Shown: positions 4,767 through 48,248, counted from the stretch's first letter. The stretch is DNA of 64,000 nucleotides from an uncultured Candidatus Saccharibacteria bacterium (GCA_964365955.1 CAYISA010000001.1:18607-82606), one strand, 5' to 3'. Program-made: numbers and translations. The notes: generated by a model from the letters alone, not told the origin.

Positions 4767-7700
4767 ATCGTATAAGTTTATCGAGATTAAACCCTTCCAC
4801 GTCGTCGTTGCGCCGATTCCCGAGCGTTTCCGAATCAAACCGCGGAGCGGTCAGGCGATAACTTACTTCCCCTTCGGAAGAACCGTAGATTATGACGCGC
4901 ATCGTTACCGCATCTTTTTCGTACCATACGTTGCCGTCAAACGCGGGCGTTAAAAGGACCGTCATGCCATCAAAATGATTCGCCAAGTTTGTAACTTTCG
5001 AAAAGAGCCATAAATCCGACGCCTCTTCCGCATTTTTAAAATCCACGCTCGCGCTATAACGCCCGTCTTGTTTGGCCAAGCGCGCAACGCCCGACGTTTC
5101 TTCTTTCTGGCCCGTCATTGCGGCGCCATAGGTGGCGTAACGCTTTCCGCCGATCGTGTAAACCGGGTCCCATGTTCCGACGCTGATTTTGCCGGTACCG
5201 CCACCAAATACCGCTACCAACCCGGTGGTGGTTGTGCCAACACTAAGCAGAGCGGAAGGAGTAGTGGTTCCTATGCCAACCTTCCCGGCAAAATAAGACG
5301 CTGCGGTTGCAAGAGAATAGATTGCATAATTTCCGGCACCTGCACTAGGAGATCCTATTCGAATTCCTTGGTTAGATGTGTTGCCAAACGCGGAAAAAAT
5401 ACCTCCCACATTCGTTCCGCCAGCCCCCGTCCATGTGGATTCCCCCGAAAGACCCACCGCAAGACGCCCAGCGGCTGCTCCTCCACTATGAACCGCGCGA
5501 ACAGCGTACGTTTCCGCCGTGGACGCTTGGGTTCCTTCACTAAAATATGCCATAGCGAATCCTTGTGTTGAGTTTGTGCTCCCTACGGTAAACCGATAGC
5601 TGGAGGGTGATACTCCAATGCCGACATTCGCCCCGCGCACAAAAATAGCATCGGATGCCAGGTTTTGAATCACCAATGTTCCATCCAACCCCACACGGAA
5701 TTTTGTGGAGGTGGCGGTAGCCGTTCGGGAAAGACGCAGAACTTCATCGGTCGGAGAGGTACTCAAAACTTCCAACTTGGAACTGGGAGCTGCCACACCG
5801 ATACCCATATTACCGCTCGTATCAAAAATGGCGCGCAGGGTGGAGCTTGTATAAAACGCGATAGGAACGGTGATGCCGCCGCCTCGGATCTGCAGTTGCC
5901 CGGCCTGTCCATCCATACTTCCGCTACCCCCCATGGTTAGATGAGTTTGCCCCGAGCTATCCGATCCAATTGAAACTATGCCGCCGGTTACATTGTCGTC
6001 TACCGTAAAAATCCCCGTTCCGGGATTCCCCACAACCGCCAACTTCGCGGTTCCAGGAGTTGTTGCGCCCACAGCAACATTGTAAGAAGCAGATGTCGGA
6101 TTAAGATTATTCCCTGAAAGTGACCAAAAATTGGTCCCCCCAGTAGGAGCCGTCCATGTTGCAAGACCATTTGCGTCGGATGTTAATACCTTCCCCGACC
6201 CTTGCGTACCATCTACAATTTGAATCGCGTCGCCAAAAAATGCGGAACGCACCAAACCGCCGATCGGTACGGTGGTTGTGACATAAATCCCGTAGGATGT
6301 TGCCCCCGCGTTTGTTGCACGTCCTGGAGTTATAAAAAGCCCGTAAGAAACGGGAGTGCCGCTTCCCGAAAAAATTGCTTCTCCGCCCGCTACTTTCAGC
6401 CCATAGGAGTTTAGTCCTGTCGCACTATTTGAATTTGTTACGCCCAGTACTCCAGAGGTTCCGGTAATGTTGGAACTGATGGATGATGCGCCGCTTAAAA
6501 TTGTAATAGCGCCTGAAGAAATTGTTCCGATGTTTGAAAGATTGCGGCTGGTATCCATAAACTGCGTGCCGCTCATCTGAAGCGGTCCCGTAGCATTTAC
6601 GTTTCCTCCGTTTATTTGAAGTAAAGCGGTGCCCGTTACATTAGTTGCGTTTTGCCAAAAAGTAAAATAATTCGCTATTCCGGAACCTCCGATTCCGCTC
6701 GGCCACGAGTTCCGACATACTTCCCCGATACAGACGTTTGCCGCAAACGTGGAAGTGGCGCTCACGGTTAAATCTCCGGTCACATCAAGCGCCGTTGCGG
6801 GAGCGACCGCCGAGCCAATACGAACATCAGATGCAAAACGAACATCGGCGGGATAGAAAAGCACCGTGGGACCGCTTGCGGTTCCATTCGGATAAAACTG
6901 GATTGAACCGCTCTGTGTGGCGCCTCCGCTGAAACCCATGTAGAAGCGATCGCCTGCCACATCATGTTTCTGCACCCATTGTCCCAATGTCGGACTTGAG
7001 GTCGCAATCCAAAACGCACCGGTCACCCGCGCGTTTCCCGCTACATCAAGCGGATAAGCGGGATTTGTGTTCCCGTTGCCTGCCCCTATAAAACCATTTT
7101 TTAGCGTGAGGAGATCCGCACCCGCTACATTTACAACAAACGCGCTATCCGTTCCCTCTTTAAAAACCACAGGATTTGCCGCTGTGGAACGAAAAAGTCC
7201 GAACAGTGGATCAGCCCCACCCGCAACGGAAAACGGATAGAGCGGTGTTGTGGTTCCGAGTCCAATATTACTTCCACTGACTGCAAGCGGGGACGTTCCA
7301 GAAAGCGCTGTTGCACTTGTCCAGTATGGAATATAATTTGCGGTTCCGGCACCTGTCACCGTGCCATTGCCTTTATTGTTAAACGTTGTCCAATCCGTGA
7401 AAGAAAGATAACCATTCGTCGTTCCATTTGCTTGGCTGATGGAAATATTCGGAGTGGCGCCTCCGCTACTGGTGAGCGGGAGCGAAGCGGTCACACTTGT
7501 GACGCCTACTGTATCAATATCATTCGAACACACAATCGTTCCGGTAGAACTAAGAGAAGAAATTTTTTGTGTTCCGCCGCAGGTGCCGCCCAACATATTC
7601 AGCATAAGCGTACCCGAGGTCGTAATCGGTCCTCCACTCAAACCCGAACCGCTTCCAACACTTGTCACTGACCCGGCAGGCCACGAGTTCCGACATACTT

Positions 7701-8553
7701 CCCCGATACAGACGTTTGCCGCAAACGTGGAAGTGGCGCTCACGGTTAAATCTCCGGTCACATCAAGCGCCGTTGCGGGAGCGACCGCCGAGCCAATACG
7801 AACATCAGATGCAAAACGAACATCGGCGGGATAGAAAAGCACCGTGGGACCGCTTGCGGTTCCATTCGGATAAAACTGGATTGAACCGCTCTGTGTGGCG
7901 CCTCCGCTGAAACCCATGTAGAAGCGATCGCCTGCCACATCATGTTTCTGCACCCATTGTCCCAATGTCGGACTTGAGGTCGCAATCCAAAACGCACCGG
8001 TCACCCGCGCGTTTCCCGCTACATCAAGCGGATAAGCGGGAGCAACTGTGCCAATGCCGACATTATCCCGCACATAAGCACTTCCATAAACTGAAAATGG
8101 CTGTGGCAAACCCGTTTTAGAAGACGTCGCGACACCAAGCGACGCGGGAAATGCAAAATTGCCTCCACCTTGCAAAGATCCGAATACACCGGAGCTGACA
8201 TTATCGGCAGAAAGCGCGCCGGAGAACGCACCTAAAAATGAGTTTGCTTGTACGTTCCCGTTCACTTGTAATGCCTGCGCGGGAGCCACGGTACCAATGC
8301 CAACATTTCCATTCGGGAAGAAAAGAATATGCTGGTTGGATCCTCCGGAAGTTTGGAACAGGAGCTGGGATTGAGAAGAATACACCGTGCTCGTCCCAAT
8401 CTGTAACGCGCGCGTAGACGATGCAAAAAGAATTCCGCAGTTGCCAGTAGGCGGATTCCCACATGGGCCTTGGAACGTTTGTGCGTCTGCAACACCCACA
8501 AATAGTGCGATGGCGGCGATAGAAAAAAGAATGAGGGTTGGAAATTTATTCAT
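4765..8553 (-). CDS. giant secreted repeat protein (1262 aa), Gly/Thr/Ser-rich with repeated NVGIGT.AP..LDV.GN motifs (tail-fibre / beta-helix-like)
   Basis: Signal peptide MNKFPTLILFSIAAIALFVGVADAQ. Many degenerate repeats VGIGTxxPxxxLxVxG. Contains a perfect 362-bp internal duplication. Confidence 0.7.
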   Translation of the reverse strand: MNKFPTLILFSIAAIALFVGVADAQTFQGPCGNPPTGNCGILFASSTRALQIGTSTVYSSQSQLLFQTSGGSNQHILFFPNGNVGIGTVAPAQALQVNGNVQANSFLGAFSGALSADNVSSGVFGSLQGGGNFAFPASLGVATSSKTGLPQPFSVYGSAYVRDNVGIGTVAPAYPLDVAGNARVTGAFWIATSSPTLGQWVQKHDVAGDRFYMGFSGGATQSGSIQFYPNGTASGPTVLFYPADVRFASDVRIGSAVAPATALDVTGDLTVSATSTFAANVCIGEVCRNSWPAGSVTSVGSGSGLSGGPITTSGTLMLNMLGGTCGGTQKISSLSSTGTIVCSNDIDTVGVTSVTASLPLTSSGGATPNISISQANGTTNGYLSFTDWTTFNNKGNGTVTGAGTANYIPYWTSATALSGTSPLAVSGSNIGLGTTTPLYPFSVAGGADPLFGLFRSTAANPVVFKEGTDSAFVVNVAGADLLTLKNGFIGAGNGNTNPAYPLDVAGNARVTGAFWIATSSPTLGQWVQKHDVAGDRFYMGFSGGATQSGSIQFYPNGTASGPTVLFYPADVRFASDVRIGSAVAPATALDVTGDLTVSATSTFAANVCIGEVCRNSWPSGIGGSGIANYFTFWQNATNVTGTALLQINGGNVNATGPLQMSGTQFMDTSRNLSNIGTISSGAITILSGASSISSNITGTSGVLGVTNSNSATGLNSYGLKVAGGEAIFSGSGTPVSYGLFITPGRATNAGATSYGIYVTTTVPIGGLVRSAFFGDAIQIVDGTQGSGKVLTSDANGLATWTAPTGGTNFWSLSGNNLNPTSASYNVAVGATTPGTAKLAVVGNPGTGIFTVDDNVTGGIVSIGSDSSGQTHLTMGGSGSMDGQAGQLQIRGGGITVPIAFYTSSTLRAIFDTSGNMGIGVAAPSSKLEVLSTSPTDEVLRLSRTATATSTKFRVGLDGTLVIQNLASDAIFVRGANVGIGVSPSSYRFTVGSTNSTQGFAMAYFSEGTQASTAETYAVRAVHSGGAAAGRLAVGLSGESTWTGAGGTNVGGIFSAFGNTSNQGIRIGSPSAGAGNYAIYSLATAASYFAGKVGIGTTTPSALLSVGTTTTGLVAVFGGGTGKISVGTWDPVYTIGGKRYATYGAAMTGQKEETSGVARLAKQDGRYSASVDFKNAEEASDLWLFSKVTNLANHFDGMTVLLTPAFDGNVWYEKDAVTMRVIIYGSSEGEVSYRLTAPRFDSETLGNRRNDDVEGFNLDKLIR
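6701..7062. repeat. 362-bp perfect direct repeat, copy 1 (intragenic, inside CDS 4765..8553)
   Basis: Identical to 7679..8040. The six-frame track shows identical ORFs 6738..6932 / 7662..7910 and 6780..7019 / 7758..7997. Period 978 bp = 326 aa. Confidence 0.9.
7679..8040. repeat. 362-bp perfect direct repeat, copy 2
   Basis: Identical to 6701..7062. Encodes the ~120 aa segment NPAYPLDVAGNARVTGAFWIATSSPTLGQWVQKHDVAGDRFYMGFSGG...CIGEVCRNSWP twice in the protein. Confidence 0.9.
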
Positions 8554-43297: not shown

Positions 43298-43815
43298 CCT
43301 ACTCGATTCCCGCTTACTCCCAACACCTGGATATTAAAGACAAAAAGTGGCGCCGCCGCTCCTGCGGAGTTGTCGCTTTCAAAATGGTACTGGATTTCTG
43401 GGAAAAACAAACATCCCCAACATTCCCAGAACTCTTGAAAAACGGACAGAAGATGAAAGCATACATTCGGGGCGTCGGGTGGAGCCATGCTGGTATTGCC
43501 AAACTTGCAAAAAAATACGGTTTTGCAGGAAAAAATTTTGATTGGTTCCTGAAAAAATCCGAATGGGCGTTCAAAAAAACCCGAATTTTTCTAAAAACCG
43601 GCCCCGTGATTGTATCGATCCATAAAGATCTGAATCCAAAGAAATCGGGGCATCTGGTGGTGGTTACTCGTATCACCGCGAGCCGCGTTTACTACCTGGA
43701 TCCCGACGCTTACGCGCGCGACAACATACGGCGCGTGGCTTCAAAAAAACGTTTTCTCGCGGGATGGAAGCGGCGCATGATCATTGTCCGCCCCCGCGGG
43801 TTGCATAGAAAATAA
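43294..43815 (+). CDS. C39-like (papain-fold) peptidase domain protein
   Basis: RRRSCGVVAFKMVLDFW (Cys motif) and later GHLVVV (His motif) resemble the Peptidase_C39-like family. Start overlaps the upstream stop (ATGA). Confidence 0.55.
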   Translation: MTYSIPAYSQHLDIKDKKWRRRSCGVVAFKMVLDFWEKQTSPTFPELLKNGQKMKAYIRGVGWSHAGIAKLAKKYGFAGKNFDWFLKKSEWAFKKTRIFLKTGPVIVSIHKDLNPKKSGHLVVVTRITASRVYYLDPDAYARDNIRRVASKKRFLAGWKRRMIIVRPRGLHRK

Positions 43816-43841
43816 GGAATTGTTAAAGTGTAGTTGCTGTT

Positions 43842-43917
43842 GCGGGCGTGGTGTAGCCTGGTTTAACACGCCTCCCTGTCACGGAGGAGACCGTGGGTTC
43901 AAATCCCATCGCCCGCG
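43842..43917 (+). tRNA. tRNA-Asp (anticodon GTC), CCA not encoded
   Basis: Acceptor GCGGGCG/CGCCCGC, G73, D-arm GUGU...ACAC, anticodon stem CCUCC/GGAGG with loop CUGUCAC, T-arm GUGGG-UUCAAAU-CCCAU. Confidence 0.75.
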
Positions 43918-43930
43918 CACGTGAAAAGAA

Positions 43931-43958
43931 GTTACCCCTTGTGGGTAATTTCTTTTTA
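43931..43958 (+). terminator. rho-independent terminator (ttacccCTTGTgggtaa + tttctttttat)
   Basis: Hairpin plus T-tract between tRNA-Asp and element E2. Confidence 0.6.
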
Positions 43959-43959
43959 T

Positions 43960-44072
43960 CCACAATGGGATTTGAAGGGAACTCGCGCGCTCGCGAGCGA
44001 GATAAAACGCGAGTCCCTGGTTTCGGAGGAGGCGCAAATGCGGCGGGGGAGAAAAAATCCCATCGCCTGCGC
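43960..44072 (+). repeat. tRNA-trailer element E2 (~113 nt) ending in an 18-nt copy of the tRNA-Asp 3' end
   Basis: ccacaatgggatttgaaggg (inverted copy of T-arm ttcaaatcccat) + core ...ctggtttcggaggaggcgcaaatgcggcgggggagaaaaa + aatcccatcgcctgcgc (17/18 identical to 43901-43918). Confidence 0.75.
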
Positions 44073-44079
44073 TGACAAA

Positions 44080-45129
44080 TTAGAAAATTACTTCTTTAAG
44101 TTTGTGCGTATCCCCGTGCTGCAATAACCCACGATAGGAGTTGATCGTCTCACGGCGCGGATATCCTTTCAGATTTCGCACTATCCTCCGTTTCGTGATG
44201 GTGCGAATCTGCCGATGATGCGGGAAATGAATCCATCCGAGAAAATCGACCCCGGAGGCATAAGACTCAATGGAAACTTTCTTCTCGTGTAACGAGAGGC
44301 GAAGGTGATCATGGAGGAATGCCCGAATCTTGAGTAATAACACCACGAGATAATCCTTGTTATCCGATAGGATCAGAAAATCATCGGCATAGCGAATATA
44401 ATATTTCCCCTTCAATTCCTGTTTTATAAACATATCAAATTCATGCATATAAATGTTTGCGAGGAGCTGGGATGTGAGATTCCCCAAGGGAAGTCCAAGG
44501 CCAGACCGCACCATATGAAAGCTTGAAATGACTTGTCCTAAGAGCCAAAGAATATCTCGATCTCCTATATTTCGTTCAATGATACGGGTCAAAATTTTTT
44601 GATCCACGCTTGCAAAGAATCTCTTAATATCACACTTTAGGACGTAGCAGGTGCGCGTATTATTCTTTGATACTTTGCGGGCAAATGAGTCGAAGCGTTC
44701 CAGAGCCTTATGAATCCCCTTGTCTTCTCGGCAGGCACAGGAATCGTAGATGAATCGCTCTTCAAAATAAGGATAGAGAGCCCGATAAAGTACGTGATGG
44801 AGAAAGCGGTCCCGCACAGAAGCCTTATGAATAGTCCGTCGTTTCGGGTCCGAGACGTGGAATTCGGAATAGGGTCCATGAACATATGTTTTGTAAAGAA
44901 GGTCTCGGTGAAGCGACACAAGATTGTCTGAGAGGCATGCCTCGAATCCCGCCACATCCTTTTTGTGTCGTTTACCGCAGAGAAACCGTTCCCACGTTGC
45001 AAGGAGATTTTCTATGGTTATGATATCTTGGTAAGTATGAATAATCGTAGTAATAGTGCTGTACCCCCCCGCACAAGGGAAACTCCGCTTGTACTTTTGA
45101 AGGTAAAAGAAACATACCGAACGTGGCAT
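44080..45129 (-). CDS. diversity-generating retroelement reverse transcriptase
   Basis: RT motifs incl. YADDFLIL (RT5) and GLPLGNLTSQLLANIYM (RT4 with the DGR-type [ILV]GxxxSQ signature). N-terminus IITIENLLATWERF...GKRHKKD is like DGR RTs. ~349 aa; start chosen at MPRSV (45129), which has a GAGGTG Shine-Dalgarno sequence; the track ORF runs to 45144. Confidence 0.85.
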   Translation of the reverse strand: MPRSVCFFYLQKYKRSFPCAGGYSTITTIIHTYQDIITIENLLATWERFLCGKRHKKDVAGFEACLSDNLVSLHRDLLYKTYVHGPYSEFHVSDPKRRTIHKASVRDRFLHHVLYRALYPYFEERFIYDSCACREDKGIHKALERFDSFARKVSKNNTRTCYVLKCDIKRFFASVDQKILTRIIERNIGDRDILWLLGQVISSFHMVRSGLGLPLGNLTSQLLANIYMHEFDMFIKQELKGKYYIRYADDFLILSDNKDYLVVLLLKIRAFLHDHLRLSLHEKKVSIESYASGVDFLGWIHFPHHRQIRTITKRRIVRNLKGYPRRETINSYRGLLQHGDTHKLKEVIF

Positions 45130-45435
45130 ACCCACCTCGCGCATATTTCTCGCATTGATCGGAATACGATAGGAATTCGTATTGACGAGACGTTCCTTTC
45201 TCTCTTGGAGCTTACGTTCCGAGCGTGTTTTGCGGCGGATAAATTTGAGAAGCTATCCATGGTGTCAAATGCTATTGCGAAATCTGACATCCTCAAATTC
45301 TTCCTGCAACTTGCATGGGAGGGAAAGACACTGGATCACGCGCTCTACGGAAAACTGCTTCTCGATTTAGATGAAATCGGCCGGATGCTCGGAGGGTGGA
45401 AACGAACCTTGTCTAGCAAAACTCCCGCGAAATAG
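45037..45435 (+). CDS. Avd-like accessory variability determinant (four-helix-bundle, basic C-terminus), encoded antisense to the RT 5' end
   Basis: C-terminus LLLDLDEIGRMLGGWKRTLSSKTPAK plus predicted helices (ETYRTWHTHLAHI / IRIDETFLSLLELTFRA / LSMVSNAIAKSDILKFFLQLAWE), as far as I recall Avd proteins. Start uncertain: the track ORF begins at 44965; 45037 is the first ATG compatible with a four-helix length. Overlaps the RT start on the opposite strand by ~90 nt. Confidence 0.5.
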   Translation: MNNRSNSAVPPRTRETPLVLLKVKETYRTWHTHLAHISRIDRNTIGIRIDETFLSLLELTFRACFAADKFEKLSMVSNAIAKSDILKFFLQLAWEGKTLDHALYGKLLLDLDEIGRMLGGWKRTLSSKTPAK

Positions 45436-45452
45436 CGGGAGAAATCATATGC

Positions 45453-45574
45453 GTAGCAGAAACAGAGCACGCAGTTGTCAGAATTCCAGTCATTCTCGAA
45501 GTTGCCGAGGTTGAACTTGTAGTCACCGTCCGAGTTGCGGTTCACGTTCGGCACCCTGTGGTTACCGTCGGCGT
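45453..45574 (-). repeat. DGR template repeat (TR), sense strand = minus
   Basis: ~122-bp non-coding copy of the 3' ends of the two target genes. In the coding orientation it is AAC-rich (encodes NHRVPNVNRNSDGDYKFNLGNFENDWNSDNCVLCFCY). Every internal mismatch to VR1/VR2 is at a TR adenine. Followed on the minus strand by the hairpin ctcccgctatttcgcgggag. Confidence 0.85.
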
Positions 45575-45814
45575 GTCGTCATGGTATATACGACGCATCA
45601 TCCAGTCCACCGGAGAGAACGCCTGTCCTCCCCTGCATTTCATTCGGAGTCTTTGAATACTCCCGAATGCATCGTACCGACGGATATGATTTTTTCATGA
45701 GGGATGGCGCGCGCGCATAAGGCGTACCCGATGCGTTCCTGGCCTATTTTCGCTCACGGGAATTCGATGACATGAAGCCGTAACCGCATGTTCGAATCCA
45801 ATTCCGTCGTTAGT

Positions 45815-45847
45815 ATATATAAAAACCCCCTCGTTTGCACGAGAGGG
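45815..45847 (-). terminator. rho-independent terminator downstream of DGR target gene 1
   Basis: Minus-strand ccctctcgtgcaaacgagggg hairpin followed by tttttatatata. Confidence 0.55.
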
Positions 45848-45904
45848 TCGAATCTAAGGAACTAATCGGACAAGAACTTATCCAATCGTCCGAGTGTCTG
45901 AGTA

Positions 45905-46573
45905 CTACTCACCGTCGCAGAAACAGAGCACGCAGTAGTCAGAACCCCAGTCACGCTCGAAGTCGCCGAGGCTGAACTCGCAGTCACCGACCGAGTAGCG
46001 GAACACGCGCGGCACCCTGTGGTCACCGCCGGCGTCAACCCAGAGAGCGTTCTTCTCGTCGAAGGAGACGTAGAATTTTCCTTTCGGAAGTTCATCTTTC
46101 TTCTCCTGATAGACGAGGGAGGCACCCTGAGCACCGACGAGAATCGCGTTCTGAGACCGCAAAAGGTTCATGTGATCTTCGGAGGTCACGCTACCCTTCT
46201 TGATTCCGAAGACTTTGACCTTGTAGGTCTTCCCGGGAACCAGTTGGGTGGTCGCCTTGGCGAAGTGTGAGTCCGTGATGTCGGTGTTGTAATAGTAGAA
46301 GCCCTTGCGGTACTTCTGTTCGAAGGTCGCAAGCTGGGTTCCATGGACATAGTCCTTGGGAACCGTAAGCGCGAACTCTTTGAGGTGCTCGTAGCGCGGA
46401 TCGATGAGGTTGGCCCCGTCAAACTTTCCCTCAATCGCATTTTGAAGATGCAGTTTGAGGAGATGCGGATTGAAGGGGTACCCACTCGGTTGGCGGAGTT
46501 GACGGGCGATTTTAAAAATCTGCCCGGTAATCGACTCGTATAAGTCGCCTGCGACAATCGGTTTCGTTGCCAT
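45905..46573 (-). CDS. DGR target protein 1 (VR at C-terminus)
   Basis: 222 aa from MATKPIV (AAAGGAA Shine-Dalgarno sequence). Paralogue of target 2. C-terminal 38 aa (GDHRVPRVFRYSVGDCEFSLGDFERDWGSDYCVLCFCDGE) is encoded by VR1. Confidence 0.75.
   Translation of the reverse strand: MATKPIVAGDLYESITGQIFKIARQLRQPSGYPFNPHLLKLHLQNAIEGKFDGANLIDPRYEHLKEFALTVPKDYVHGTQLATFEQKYRKGFYYYNTDITDSHFAKATTQLVPGKTYKVKVFGIKKGSVTSEDHMNLLRSQNAILVGAQGASLVYQEKKDELPKGKFYVSFDEKNALWVDAGGDHRVPRVFRYSVGDCEFSLGDFERDWGSDYCVLCFCDGE
45912..46035 (-). repeat. DGR variable repeat VR1
   Basis: Aligns with the TR over ~122 bp. ~23 differences, all at TR T (plus strand) = A (coding strand) except the boundary position. Confidence 0.85.
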
Positions 46574-46738
46574 GACGATATTCCTTTCTGTTAATGAACG
46601 CTTGGAGACTGCCAAGTCAGGTGTAAGGGTATCTTACGGTCTAAAGAGTAGTATAGTAATTATATATTGTCAAGCATAAAGATTCGAATCAACGGGCCTA
46701 TCCCCTACCAAAACCCCTACAAATGGAGGGTAAATCGA

Positions 46739-46772
46739 TGTATAAAAAATGCCTCTCGTTTGCACGAGAGGC
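46739..46772 (-). terminator. rho-independent terminator downstream of DGR target gene 2
   Basis: Minus-strand gcctctcgtgcaaacgagaggc perfect hairpin followed by attttttata. Confidence 0.6.
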
Positions 46773-46831
46773 ATGAATCTAAGGGTCGAAAAACCCTAAG
46801 GGCATACATAATGGACGTAAGCGCCAAAGAA

Positions 46832-47683
46832 TTATTCGCCGTCGCAGAAACAGAGCACGCAGTCGGCAGAATTCCAGCCACCCTCGAAGTAGCCGAGGTT
46901 GAACTCGTAGTCACCGACCGAGAGGCGGTACACGTGCGGCACCCTGTGGTCACCGTCGGGGTCTTTCCAGAGCGCTTCCTTCTTATCAAAGGAGAGGGTC
47001 CACTTGCCGACCGGAAACTCGTCTTTCTTGAGTTGCCAGGCAAGCGAGAGACCATGGGCTCCGACAAAGATCGCTTTCTCGCGGGCATACACTCCCATCA
47101 ATTCCTCCGAGGTGGATCGAGAACCGATGTTCACGATCTTGACCTTGTAAGTTTTGCCGGGGACAAGCTTCTGCGTCGCGTTCCGGAAATTCTTGTCGGT
47201 CACGTCATCGTTGAAGGAGTAGAAATCTCTGAGCTTCAACGAGTCGAGCTGTCTCTCGTGCCGATAGTTCTTCGGAACCGTGAGAGAGAAGGTCTTCAAG
47301 ACCATGAATCTCTGGAGGAGAAGCTGCTTTCGCGCTTTCTCCTGCCAGTCCTTCGGACCGTTCTTCACAATATACTCGAGATCATCCGTCTGAAATGCGC
47401 CGGAGGCAAACATCTTGCCCCAATGCGCGTCGAAATTCTGAAGCTTCTTTGCGATCTCTTCGGGAACCTTGTGGAGATTCCAGAAATCCCGGACTTCGTG
47501 CTCGCGGCCTTTGCCGTCCAGTTCGAAGAATAGATCGATGGCACCATGACCCAAGACATCGTTATCACGACACTCCGTGAATTTCTTTTTCCCCTCTTCG
47601 GAGAAAACCTCTTTGTCGGTGAGATAGAAAAGCACGGAGGTACCATTCTTCTCTACCTTTTTCCATGATATGAAATCGCACAT
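46832..47683 (-). CDS. DGR target protein 2 (VR at C-terminus)
   Basis: 283 aa from MCDFISW (GGAAGGAG Shine-Dalgarno sequence 7 nt upstream). C-terminus GDHRVPHVYRLSVGDYEFNLGYFEGGWNSADCVLCFCDGE is encoded by VR2. The central region is paralogous to target 1 (FSLTVPKNY...LVPGKTYKVK). Confidence 0.75.
   Translation of the reverse strand: MCDFISWKKVEKNGTSVLFYLTDKEVFSEEGKKKFTECRDNDVLGHGAIDLFFELDGKGREHEVRDFWNLHKVPEEIAKKLQNFDAHWGKMFASGAFQTDDLEYIVKNGPKDWQEKARKQLLLQRFMVLKTFSLTVPKNYRHERQLDSLKLRDFYSFNDDVTDKNFRNATQKLVPGKTYKVKIVNIGSRSTSEELMGVYAREKAIFVGAHGLSLAWQLKKDEFPVGKWTLSFDKKEALWKDPDGDHRVPHVYRLSVGDYEFNLGYFEGGWNSADCVLCFCDGE
46839..46962 (-). repeat. DGR variable repeat VR2
   Basis: Aligns with the TR. 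~19 differences, all at TR adenine positions (coding strand) except one boundary position. Confidence 0.85.
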
Positions 47684-48023
47684 ATGTGACTCCTTCCTAG
47701 GAATTGTGAGGGAAACAGTGTATTTAGTTCGTAAGGTTTCTGACACCAGGTTAGCATATTGTTTCTATTTTGTCAAATCTATGTAGCAAAAGCATATAGA
47801 ACAGAGGTATTTAGCTGCTCTAGTATTCCTTACTATCTCTGTAAAATCTTTGGAAATAACGGAAAATGTGGTAGGAATAATCAAGTTAATACAATCGCTC
47901 GTAGGTCTGGAATATAAATTGATGTATCATTTCTCCTCTCAAATGCGGTTTTAACATCGTCCACTAGCCCGCGCAAGTGAAAAGAAATAAAAATCCCCGC
48001 GTAAAACGCGGAGATTATTTCCG

Positions 48024-48194
48024 TTTGGGACAGTTTTTCTTATGGATTTTTTCGAATTCAAAACGGATATGTTTATTGCAGTAAACACAGTAGGAACAGG
48101 GACAGCTATGCTTGGCGCCTCCTAAATGACACCGGCATCTGCATTCTTCAGAGGAATGCGGAGGTATCACCTTCATTCTTTTCATGCGGTTTTT
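48024..48194 (-). CDS. small Cys/His-rich protein (56 aa; not in the ORF track because it is under 60 aa)
   Basis: Hand translation gives MKRMKVIPPHSSEECRCRCHLGGAKHSCPCSYCVYCNKHIRFEFEKIHKKNCPKRK. AGGAA Shine-Dalgarno-like sequence upstream. A ccgcgttttacgcgg hairpin plus U-tract terminator lies immediately downstream. Starts 55 nt after the gatA stop. Confidence 0.35.
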
Positions 48195-48248
48195 CCTGTC
48201 TGAAATTTTGAATAACGCTATCTAGATAATAGCACGTCAGAGAAAAAT

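Follow-up and report, generated by a model that had tools for sequence, protein, structure and literature searches.

Diversity-generating retroelements (DGRs) are known to be abundant in groundwater bacteria of the Candidate Phyla Radiation (CPR, Patescibacteria). The gene order of 90% of the CPR elements is of the B3 type, TR-(avd)-RT, in which the template repeat (TR) is followed by a reverse-strand avd and by the gene of the reverse transcriptase (RT) (Wu et al. 2018, PMC5758913). The RTs of DGRs are marked by the motif [I/V/L]GxxxSQ in place of the QGxxxSP of other RTs, and two residues of the RT of Bordetella phage BPP-1 (bRT), R74 and I181, are reported to promote adenine mutagenesis (PMC7826257). 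Of 278 DGRs with an Avd, CPR elements among them, 207 are reported to have a putative Avd-binding stem-loop directly 3′ of the TR (Handa et al., bioRxiv 10.1101/2023.10.23.563531). We describe here a locus of this kind in a stretch of 64,000 nucleotides of an uncultured Candidatus Saccharibacteria bacterium (GCA_964365955.1, CAYISA010000001.1:18607-82606), named hereafter the window and numbered from its first letter. We are confident that it is a complete chromosomal DGR of the CPR type, with the minus-strand order target 2 - target 1 - TR - (avd, opposite strand) - RT (Table 1). An initial annotation made from the sequence alone had proposed a complete DGR in this order. Both the order and the interpretation were reproduced, the latter by an RT, an Avd, a TR, two variable repeats (VRs) with adenine-specific mismatches, a lectin-like predicted target fold and about 20 loci of the same kind.

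A repeat search returned a 123-nt family with three copies, the TR, VR1 and VR2, at positions that agree to within 1 nt with those first given. When only non-A positions were scored, no further TR or VR copy was found in the 64-kb window, in agreement with the two VRs per TR counted initially. The copies were aligned without gaps on the minus strand, and A and non-A positions over 45452-45574 were compared by Fisher's exact test. The TR differs from VR1 at 18 positions, 17 of which are TR adenines (p = 1.4e-11), and from VR2 at 15 positions, of which 13 are TR adenines (p = 1.3e-7). The counts of 23 and 19 mismatches obtained earlier by eye were too high, while the concentration of mismatches at template adenines is borne out by the computed substitution table. 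The sole non-A mismatch of VR1 is a T>G change at 45455, at the 3′ boundary of the repeat; VR2 has the same change and a G>C change at 45572, at the 5′ boundary. The claim that every mismatch but one boundary base falls on a template adenine is therefore correct for VR1 and has to be extended to two boundary exceptions for VR2. In the core (45456-45571) none of the 87 non-A positions is mismatched in either VR. Across both VRs the A-to-N changes are 16 to G, 9 to T and 5 to C. The three copies have in common an adenine-free 19-nt 3′ stretch, a putative IMH/IMH* (initiation of mutagenic homing) site, and diverge beyond 45455-45452, and each VR ends 8 nt ahead of the stop codon of its target.

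Read in the frame of the VRs, the TR gives the AAC-rich translation reported initially, with seven AAC and two AAT codons. Thirty TR adenines are distributed over the codon positions of this frame as 11 at the first, 19 at the second and none at the third. About 21 codons are recodable, for a theoretical repertoire of ~4e17 protein variants, and a stop can be reached from one codon only (AAG). Two open reading frames (ORFs) that overlap the TR and its leader, at 45345-45554 (minus strand) and 45535-45720 (plus strand), were taken as spurious.

Table 1. Position of the DGR components and of associated sequence features in the window.
Feature	Position	Strand	Remarks
tRNA-Asp(GTC)	43842..43918	+	cassette immediately 3′
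Partial direct repeat of tRNA-Asp 3′ end	44055..44072	+	17/18 nt; just outside the RT stop codon
RT gene	44080..45144	-	354 aa; ATGs at 45144 and 45129; YADD at residues 252-255, LGNLTSQ at 220-226
Promoter-like site	44997-45024	+	upstream of avd
RT/avd overlap	45037-45144		head-to-head, opposite strands
avd	45097..45435	+	between TR and RT, opposite strand; TTG at 45097 (112 aa) or ATG at 45037 (132 aa)
Hairpin and UUUU after TR	45418..45441	-	stem 45441-45422, 7 bp (CUCCCGC/GCGGGAG), 6-nt loop; 10 nt past TR
TR	45452..45574	-	non-coding; 31 adenines in 123 nt; final ~19 nt (TGCGTGCTCTGTTTCTGCT) without adenine
Structured 5′ leader of TR RNA	45575..45682	-	helices P1-P3; covariation
P1	45676-45666 with 45599-45589	-
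P2	45663-45659 with 45650-45646	-
P3	45633-45626 with 45619-45612	-
Invariant GGUGGA	45611-45606	-	in leader
Extended -10-like element, TGAAAAAAT	45689..45697	-	7-9 nt upstream of leader; near-invariant, columns 27-37 of alignment A2 (see text)
Hairpin and T-run after target 1	45824..45849	-	56 nt past stop codon; 11-bp stem, GCAA loop
Target gene 1	45905..46573	-	222 aa; MEK7465175.1 (NCBI), hypothetical protein
VR1	45913-46035	-	last ~41 codons of target 1
Hairpin and T-run after target 2	46749..46774	-	same loop; stem differs at base
Target gene 2	46832..47683	-	283 aa; alternative GTG at 47746 (304 aa)
VR2	46840-46962	-
Partial direct repeat of tRNA-Asp 3′ end and 3′ flank	47960..47986	+	23/27 nt; 19/20 over 47967-47986; just outside the target 2 upstream region

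The RT is of the DGR type by its sequence. It matches RVT_1 in Pfam (E 2.5e-23) and its best match in the PDB is 8ub7_A (E 1.3e-40; query residues 40-349 against 11-315 of the 328 of the chain), which is the brt product of phage BPP-1, with 100% identity over the 109 residues tested by tblastn. Group II intron and retron RTs are the next PDB matches, at only ~1e-15. The LGNLTSQ motif is aligned opposite IGSLTSQ of bRT, and Arg103 and Leu220 align with R74 and I181 (numbering counted on the PDB-match alignment). The YADD and LGNLTSQ motifs named in the initial annotation are present, and a DGR enzyme is favoured over a retron or group II RT by the SQ motif and by this gap in E-values. The gene limits that the annotation gave (44080..45129) have the right stop codon and a usable ATG at 45129; the ORF reaches further, to an ATG at 45144.

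The product of avd matches the NCBIfam model DivGenRetAVD with an E-value of 2.6e-12 over positions 4-103 of its 104, at 47 bits, which is below the curated cutoff of 80, and the Pfam model bAvd at E 8e-8. A sequence search with Avd against the PDB gave no matches. Gene callers omit or shorten avd; in L001 a 58-aa fragment is called. The 5′ ends of avd and of the RT gene overlap head-to-head by 48 nt (TTG start) or 108 nt (ATG start). Because of this overlap the promoters of the two genes would each lie within the other gene.

The target genes are paralogs that have in common a C-terminal module of ~170 aa and differ in their N-terminal domains. Pfam and NCBIfam scans of both proteins, and a sequence search of the PDB with target 2, gave no matches; target 1 has no signal peptide and no known domain, and export signals are lacking from the targets. 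The predicted structure of the target has a C-type-lectin-like fold, and a Foldseek search of the PDB found no significant match. The VR is predicted to be displayed on this C-type-lectin-like module, which would bind a ligand. The hairpins that follow the two targets are near-identical, lie 56-65 nt downstream, and have 11-bp stems and T-runs. Among the relatives, 17 of 19 VRs are followed 45-67 nt downstream by a strong hairpin, which in 13 of these cases has a T-run. Judged by their sequence, the hairpins after the VRs are intrinsic terminators; they may also serve in target recognition, by analogy with the BPP-1 hairpin (PMC3240598). Rfam gave a weak match to the suhB/mmgR small RNA at 46735-46810 on the minus strand (34.5 bits, short of the gathering score of 41; E 1.7e-4); this identity was not retained for the VR2 terminator, the sub-threshold match reflecting probably just a hairpin followed by a U-run. 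Upstream of both targets (46600-46680 and 47700-47760, minus strand) TTGACA is followed ~12 nt on by TAT(A/G)CT, as seen by eye. These pairs, which a sigma-70 scan demanding a spacing of 16-18 nt passes over, could be candidate target promoters.

The exact RT is present on 11 public contigs of Hainich groundwater assemblies, whose genome carries the NCBI label 'Patescibacteria group bacterium'. The set used for comparison comprised L006-L010, which encode target homologs, and L011-L047, 37 loci with RT relatives. Most of these 37 come from metagenome-assembled genomes (MAGs) of Paceibacterota, Nomurabacteria, Zambryskibacteria and similar groups; by the origin of these relatives, the RT would group with the CPR DGR RTs. 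The order VR - TR - avd (reverse) - RT was found by script wherever upstream DNA is present (L006-L036), a homolog of avd being detected at the inverted position by tblastn, and the tblastn coordinates place the same RT/avd overlap in L013, L016, L017 and L018. Because B3 is the standard CPR architecture, the inverted avd is the norm of the class and not an oddity. About 20 related RT loci have the same layout and A-bias, the share of mismatches at A positions including 15/16, 17/17, 16/16, 11/11, 12/12, 23/23 and 22/23, and in all of them the adenine-bearing copy is the non-coding one.

Two tandem DGRs occupy 2459-8676 in L006, L007 and L010, one of the window type and one canonical, with an FGE-sulfatase-type target, avd, TR and RT on one strand. 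Throughout L006-L010 a DGR of the window type neighbours a canonical one in a region that encodes a serine recombinase, a methyltransferase (of the D12 type in L006, L007 and L010), Fic and SocA/Panacea, with BubE/ThiF-like genes in these three loci as well; this setting also points to mobility. L010 is labelled Ignavibacteriaceae by NCBI, which would reflect mis-binning or transfer beyond the CPR. In L005 (GCA_030017555.1) two adjacent target homologs of 284 and 214 aa lie at 6001-7939, between smc and rpsP. Within 6 kb of the pair neither an RT nor avd nor a TR could be detected, and the two genes may be orphans or may be served from a distance by a DGR located at another site of the genome.

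The cassette adjoins a tRNA-Asp gene. The two best non-self matches to the 3′ segment of this gene in the 64 kb flank the cassette in direct orientation, and the 9-mer CAAATGCGG is found ~19 nt upstream of each tRNA-end repeat. AAATCCCATCGCCYGCGC would be the core recognised by an integrase at this site. Two syntenic loci, L049 (JGI metagenome; 7553-7643) and L051 (Brennerbacteria MAG; 7545-8143), have the site without a DGR, within the order recG ... pheS - NlpC/P60 - C39 peptidase - tRNA-Asp - gatA - gatC - ligA - pilin-like genes - prepilin peptidase. The tRNA gene and the gatA stop codon are 14 nt apart in L049, and an unrelated 107-aa ORF occupies the site in L051. The att-like flanking repeats and the empty site in syntenic relatives identify the cassette as an insertion of ~4 kb at a tRNA-Asp hot spot. 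No integrase is encoded within the 4-kb cassette. Most RT relatives have no tRNA within 5 kb and, because tRNA adjacency is not general in the DGR clade, this island reading is confined to the window genome. No RT relatives were found in IMG/VR viral contigs. Between the right tRNA-like repeat and gatA, a cysteine-rich ORF of 56 aa with several CxxC-like pairs (48015-48185, minus strand) is not in the public annotation; a bidirectional hairpin flanks it at 47992-48016.

The repeats also record the history of the element. Within the VR, 40 of 40 third-codon positions are identical among VR1, VR2 and the TR, whereas in the 120 nt upstream the paralogs agree at 17 of 40. Compared with each other, the two VRs are identical at 88 of 89 non-A positions but at only 16 of 30 A positions. 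Because the third positions are homogenised within the VR and diverged upstream of it, the TR is read as having overwritten both targets after their divergence, with independent A-to-N changes, which is strong sequence evidence of past activity on both. For the present, variability of the VRs within or between populations is not seen in public assemblies: the stretch 43800-48200 with its VRs recurs at 100% identity in four independent assemblies, and the 90%-identity clusters of both targets hold exact sequences only. This counts as weak negative evidence, because the data are consensus assemblies of one aquifer in which low-frequency variants are hidden. The element might be a fossil that formerly diversified both targets and is now silent or fixed, the VRs having become parts of ordinary genes. 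This would agree with VRs that are identical across all public assemblies and clusters, and with a cassette that resembles the remnant of an integrated element and has no integrase. We nevertheless regard it as unlikely: the RT is full length, with catalytic and fidelity motifs preserved, avd has an intact ORF, the leader RNA described below scores among the best of its clade, and the core free of non-A mismatches argues against a long decay since the last homing.

A structured RNA leader precedes the TR. The ~130 nt 5′ of the TR were aligned for 15 loci (alignment A2), for which RNAalifold proposed three helices. In an alignment of 14 sequences (A3), 95.5% of the cells form standard pairs, and sliding the 3′ partners by 1-3 columns lowers this share to 36-51%; changes on both sides occur in 22 of 24 pairs, and none of 500 shuffles reached the observed values. 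The covariance model derived from A3 (R1) has a single match in the window, at 45682-45567 on the minus strand (101 bits). Among the DGRs of this RT clade it gives one match each, on the RT strand and abutting the TR, as at 7068-7180 in L006, 266-379 in L016 and 166-300 in L027. Loci that did not contribute to its training are recognised too (L016 with 106 bits, L027 with 49 bits, and L009, where a contig end interrupts the match). Over 391 kb R1 found nothing else save a marginal match in L029 (17 bits, E 0.07), and it matched neither the canonical second DGR of L006 nor the distant B3 DGRs L032, L034 and L044. Rfam has no family at the leader or TR RNA. The structure is drawn from covariation and not from single-sequence folding, because the minimum-free-energy fold of the TR RNA shows no unusual stability (z = -1.1) and lacks P1.

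Two single-stranded motifs of the leader are invariant, AUAAAAUNCA and GGUG(GA), and no pairing partner was identified for them. Pairing of GGUGGA with CCACC of the antisense avd strand is compatible with the sequences; inspection of A2 found no covariation and we make no claim for it. A duplex like the 'cPRT Stop' of BPP-1 between the regions upstream and downstream of the TR gave no signal (RNAduplex z from -1.9 to +1.2). The element TGAAAAAAT fits the consensus TGnTAnnnT, from which we infer that it is the promoter of the TR RNA. At the other end, the hairpin after the TR overlaps the stop codon of avd on the other strand. A hairpin 3-12 nt past the TR, followed by a T-run, is present in 14 of 17 loci with unrelated stem sequences. 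By analogy with the stem-loops of other Avd-containing DGRs it is probably an Avd-binding stem-loop and/or the terminator of the TR RNA, and the U-run that follows suggests that it also ends the transcript.

The leader helices and this hairpin could have no part in retrohoming; they might just terminate some upstream unit, or form a small RNA of their own that lies next to the TR by chance. In favour of this, the U-run is that of any intrinsic terminator, and the single-sequence fold of the whole RNA is unremarkable and lacks P1. This explanation is improbable, since the leader is found only beside the TRs of this RT clade, where each DGR has a single copy that directly adjoins its TR and shares the strand of the RT, the targets already have their own terminators upstream of it, and the place just 3′ of the TR is the known position of the Avd-binding stem-loop. 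For the leader as a part of the retroelement, we put forward a tentative model, to which we give less than an even chance: the CPR-type B3 DGRs would use a permuted template RNA, a small RNA of ~265 nt transcribed from its own promoter and apart from the RT, with the conserved structure 5′ of the TR and only a hairpin-terminator 3′ of it. The 5′ structure (three helices, AUAAAAUNCA and GGUG) may then act in protein recruitment or as a stop for complementary DNA (cDNA) synthesis. Neither the leader RNA and its permuted organisation, nor the head-to-head RT/avd overlap and the tRNA-Asp site with its empty counterpart, was found in a survey of the literature that did not extend to the primary paper on CPR DGRs (Paul et al. 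2017); the leader may be undescribed so far.

That gene conversion or paralog duplication made the three repeats, next to an unrelated group II, retron or defence RT, is refuted by the tabulated substitutions and has practically no probability left: the targets are paralogs and the top NCBIfam model for the RT is that of a group II intron RT/maturase (TIGR04416, 130.8 bits), but NCBIfam has no model for DGR RTs and this score is far under the cutoff of 300, among solved structures the DGR enzyme is the closest relative, ahead of the others by 25 orders of magnitude in E-value, SQ stands in place of the group II SP (PMC7826257), Rfam shows no retron RNA and, even at E up to 1, no group II intron, conversion cannot yield mismatches that occur only where the template has an adenine, at codon positions 1 and 2, and it is the non-coding copy that bears the adenines in all ~20 related loci. 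With group II intron and retron RTs the enzyme has in common the RVT_1 palm and fingers domain; it differs by its far lower score against them (1e-15) and by its SQ, and the element has neither a maturase or endonuclease domain nor an intron or msr/msd RNA.

The components suggest the following mode of operation. A minus-strand RNA of ~265 nt would start from the extended -10-like promoter near 45697-45689 and comprise the leader, the 123-nt TR and the hairpin with its U-run, a segment in which the opposite DNA strand codes for the end of avd. The RT, together with Avd, would bind this RNA and make a cDNA of the TR in which wrong nucleotides are inserted only opposite template adenines. This cDNA would then take the place of the homologous VR in one or the other target gene, with the adenine-free stretch that TR and VRs share at their 3′ ends as its anchor. 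Because TR adenines sit only at codon positions 1 and 2, about 21 codons of the lectin-like module would be recoded, giving up to ~4e17 variants with one stop-prone codon. A single template could diversify two proteins because the targets share the variable module and differ in their N-terminal domains. The cassette itself would have been gained as an insertion 3′ of tRNA-Asp.

The locus offers a clean case of one template that homogenises and diversifies two paralogs with different N-terminal domains. The comparison of ~16 loci defines likely limits and the structure of the template RNA of the CPR class, on which, to our knowledge, no biochemistry exists. The covariance model of the leader could help to find TRs and to orient DGRs in fragmentary metagenomes, and the occupied and empty tRNA-Asp sites are direct evidence of horizontal movement of the cassette between CPR genomes.

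Set against the described systems, the element is typical of the known CPR class. It shares gene order and groundwater patescibacterial host with the B3 elements (PMC5758913) and with DGR clade 2 of Roux et al. 2021 (PMC8144416). Like them it is cell-encoded, with no RT relative in IMG/VR, and its targets are devoid of transmembrane segments and known domains, as in clade 2. Multiple target genes are a known variation among CPR DGRs, and nothing in the element is categorically different; what it adds, modestly, is the structure of the leader and the tRNA-Asp site in its occupied and empty states. The DGR of phage BPP-1 (mtd-avd-TR-brt) is alike in the full-length homology of the RT (E 1.3e-40), its SQ and YADD motifs, the Arg at the position of R74 and the aliphatic residue at that of I181, and also in the Avd homolog, the A-to-N mutagenesis of an AAY-rich TR, a C-terminal VR on a C-type-lectin-type protein and a stem-loop just 3′ of the TR. 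It differs in that avd is inverted in the window and two targets are present instead of one. The BPP-1 element belongs to a phage tail-fibre locus, while that of the window is chromosomal in a CPR cell. The ~140-nt structured spacer of BPP-1 lies 3′ of the TR, whereas the conserved structure in the window is 5′ of it, and the BPP-1 hairpin is adjacent to the initiation of mutagenic homing (IMH) sequence, whereas the hairpin after the VR in the window and its relatives stands 45-67 nt away.

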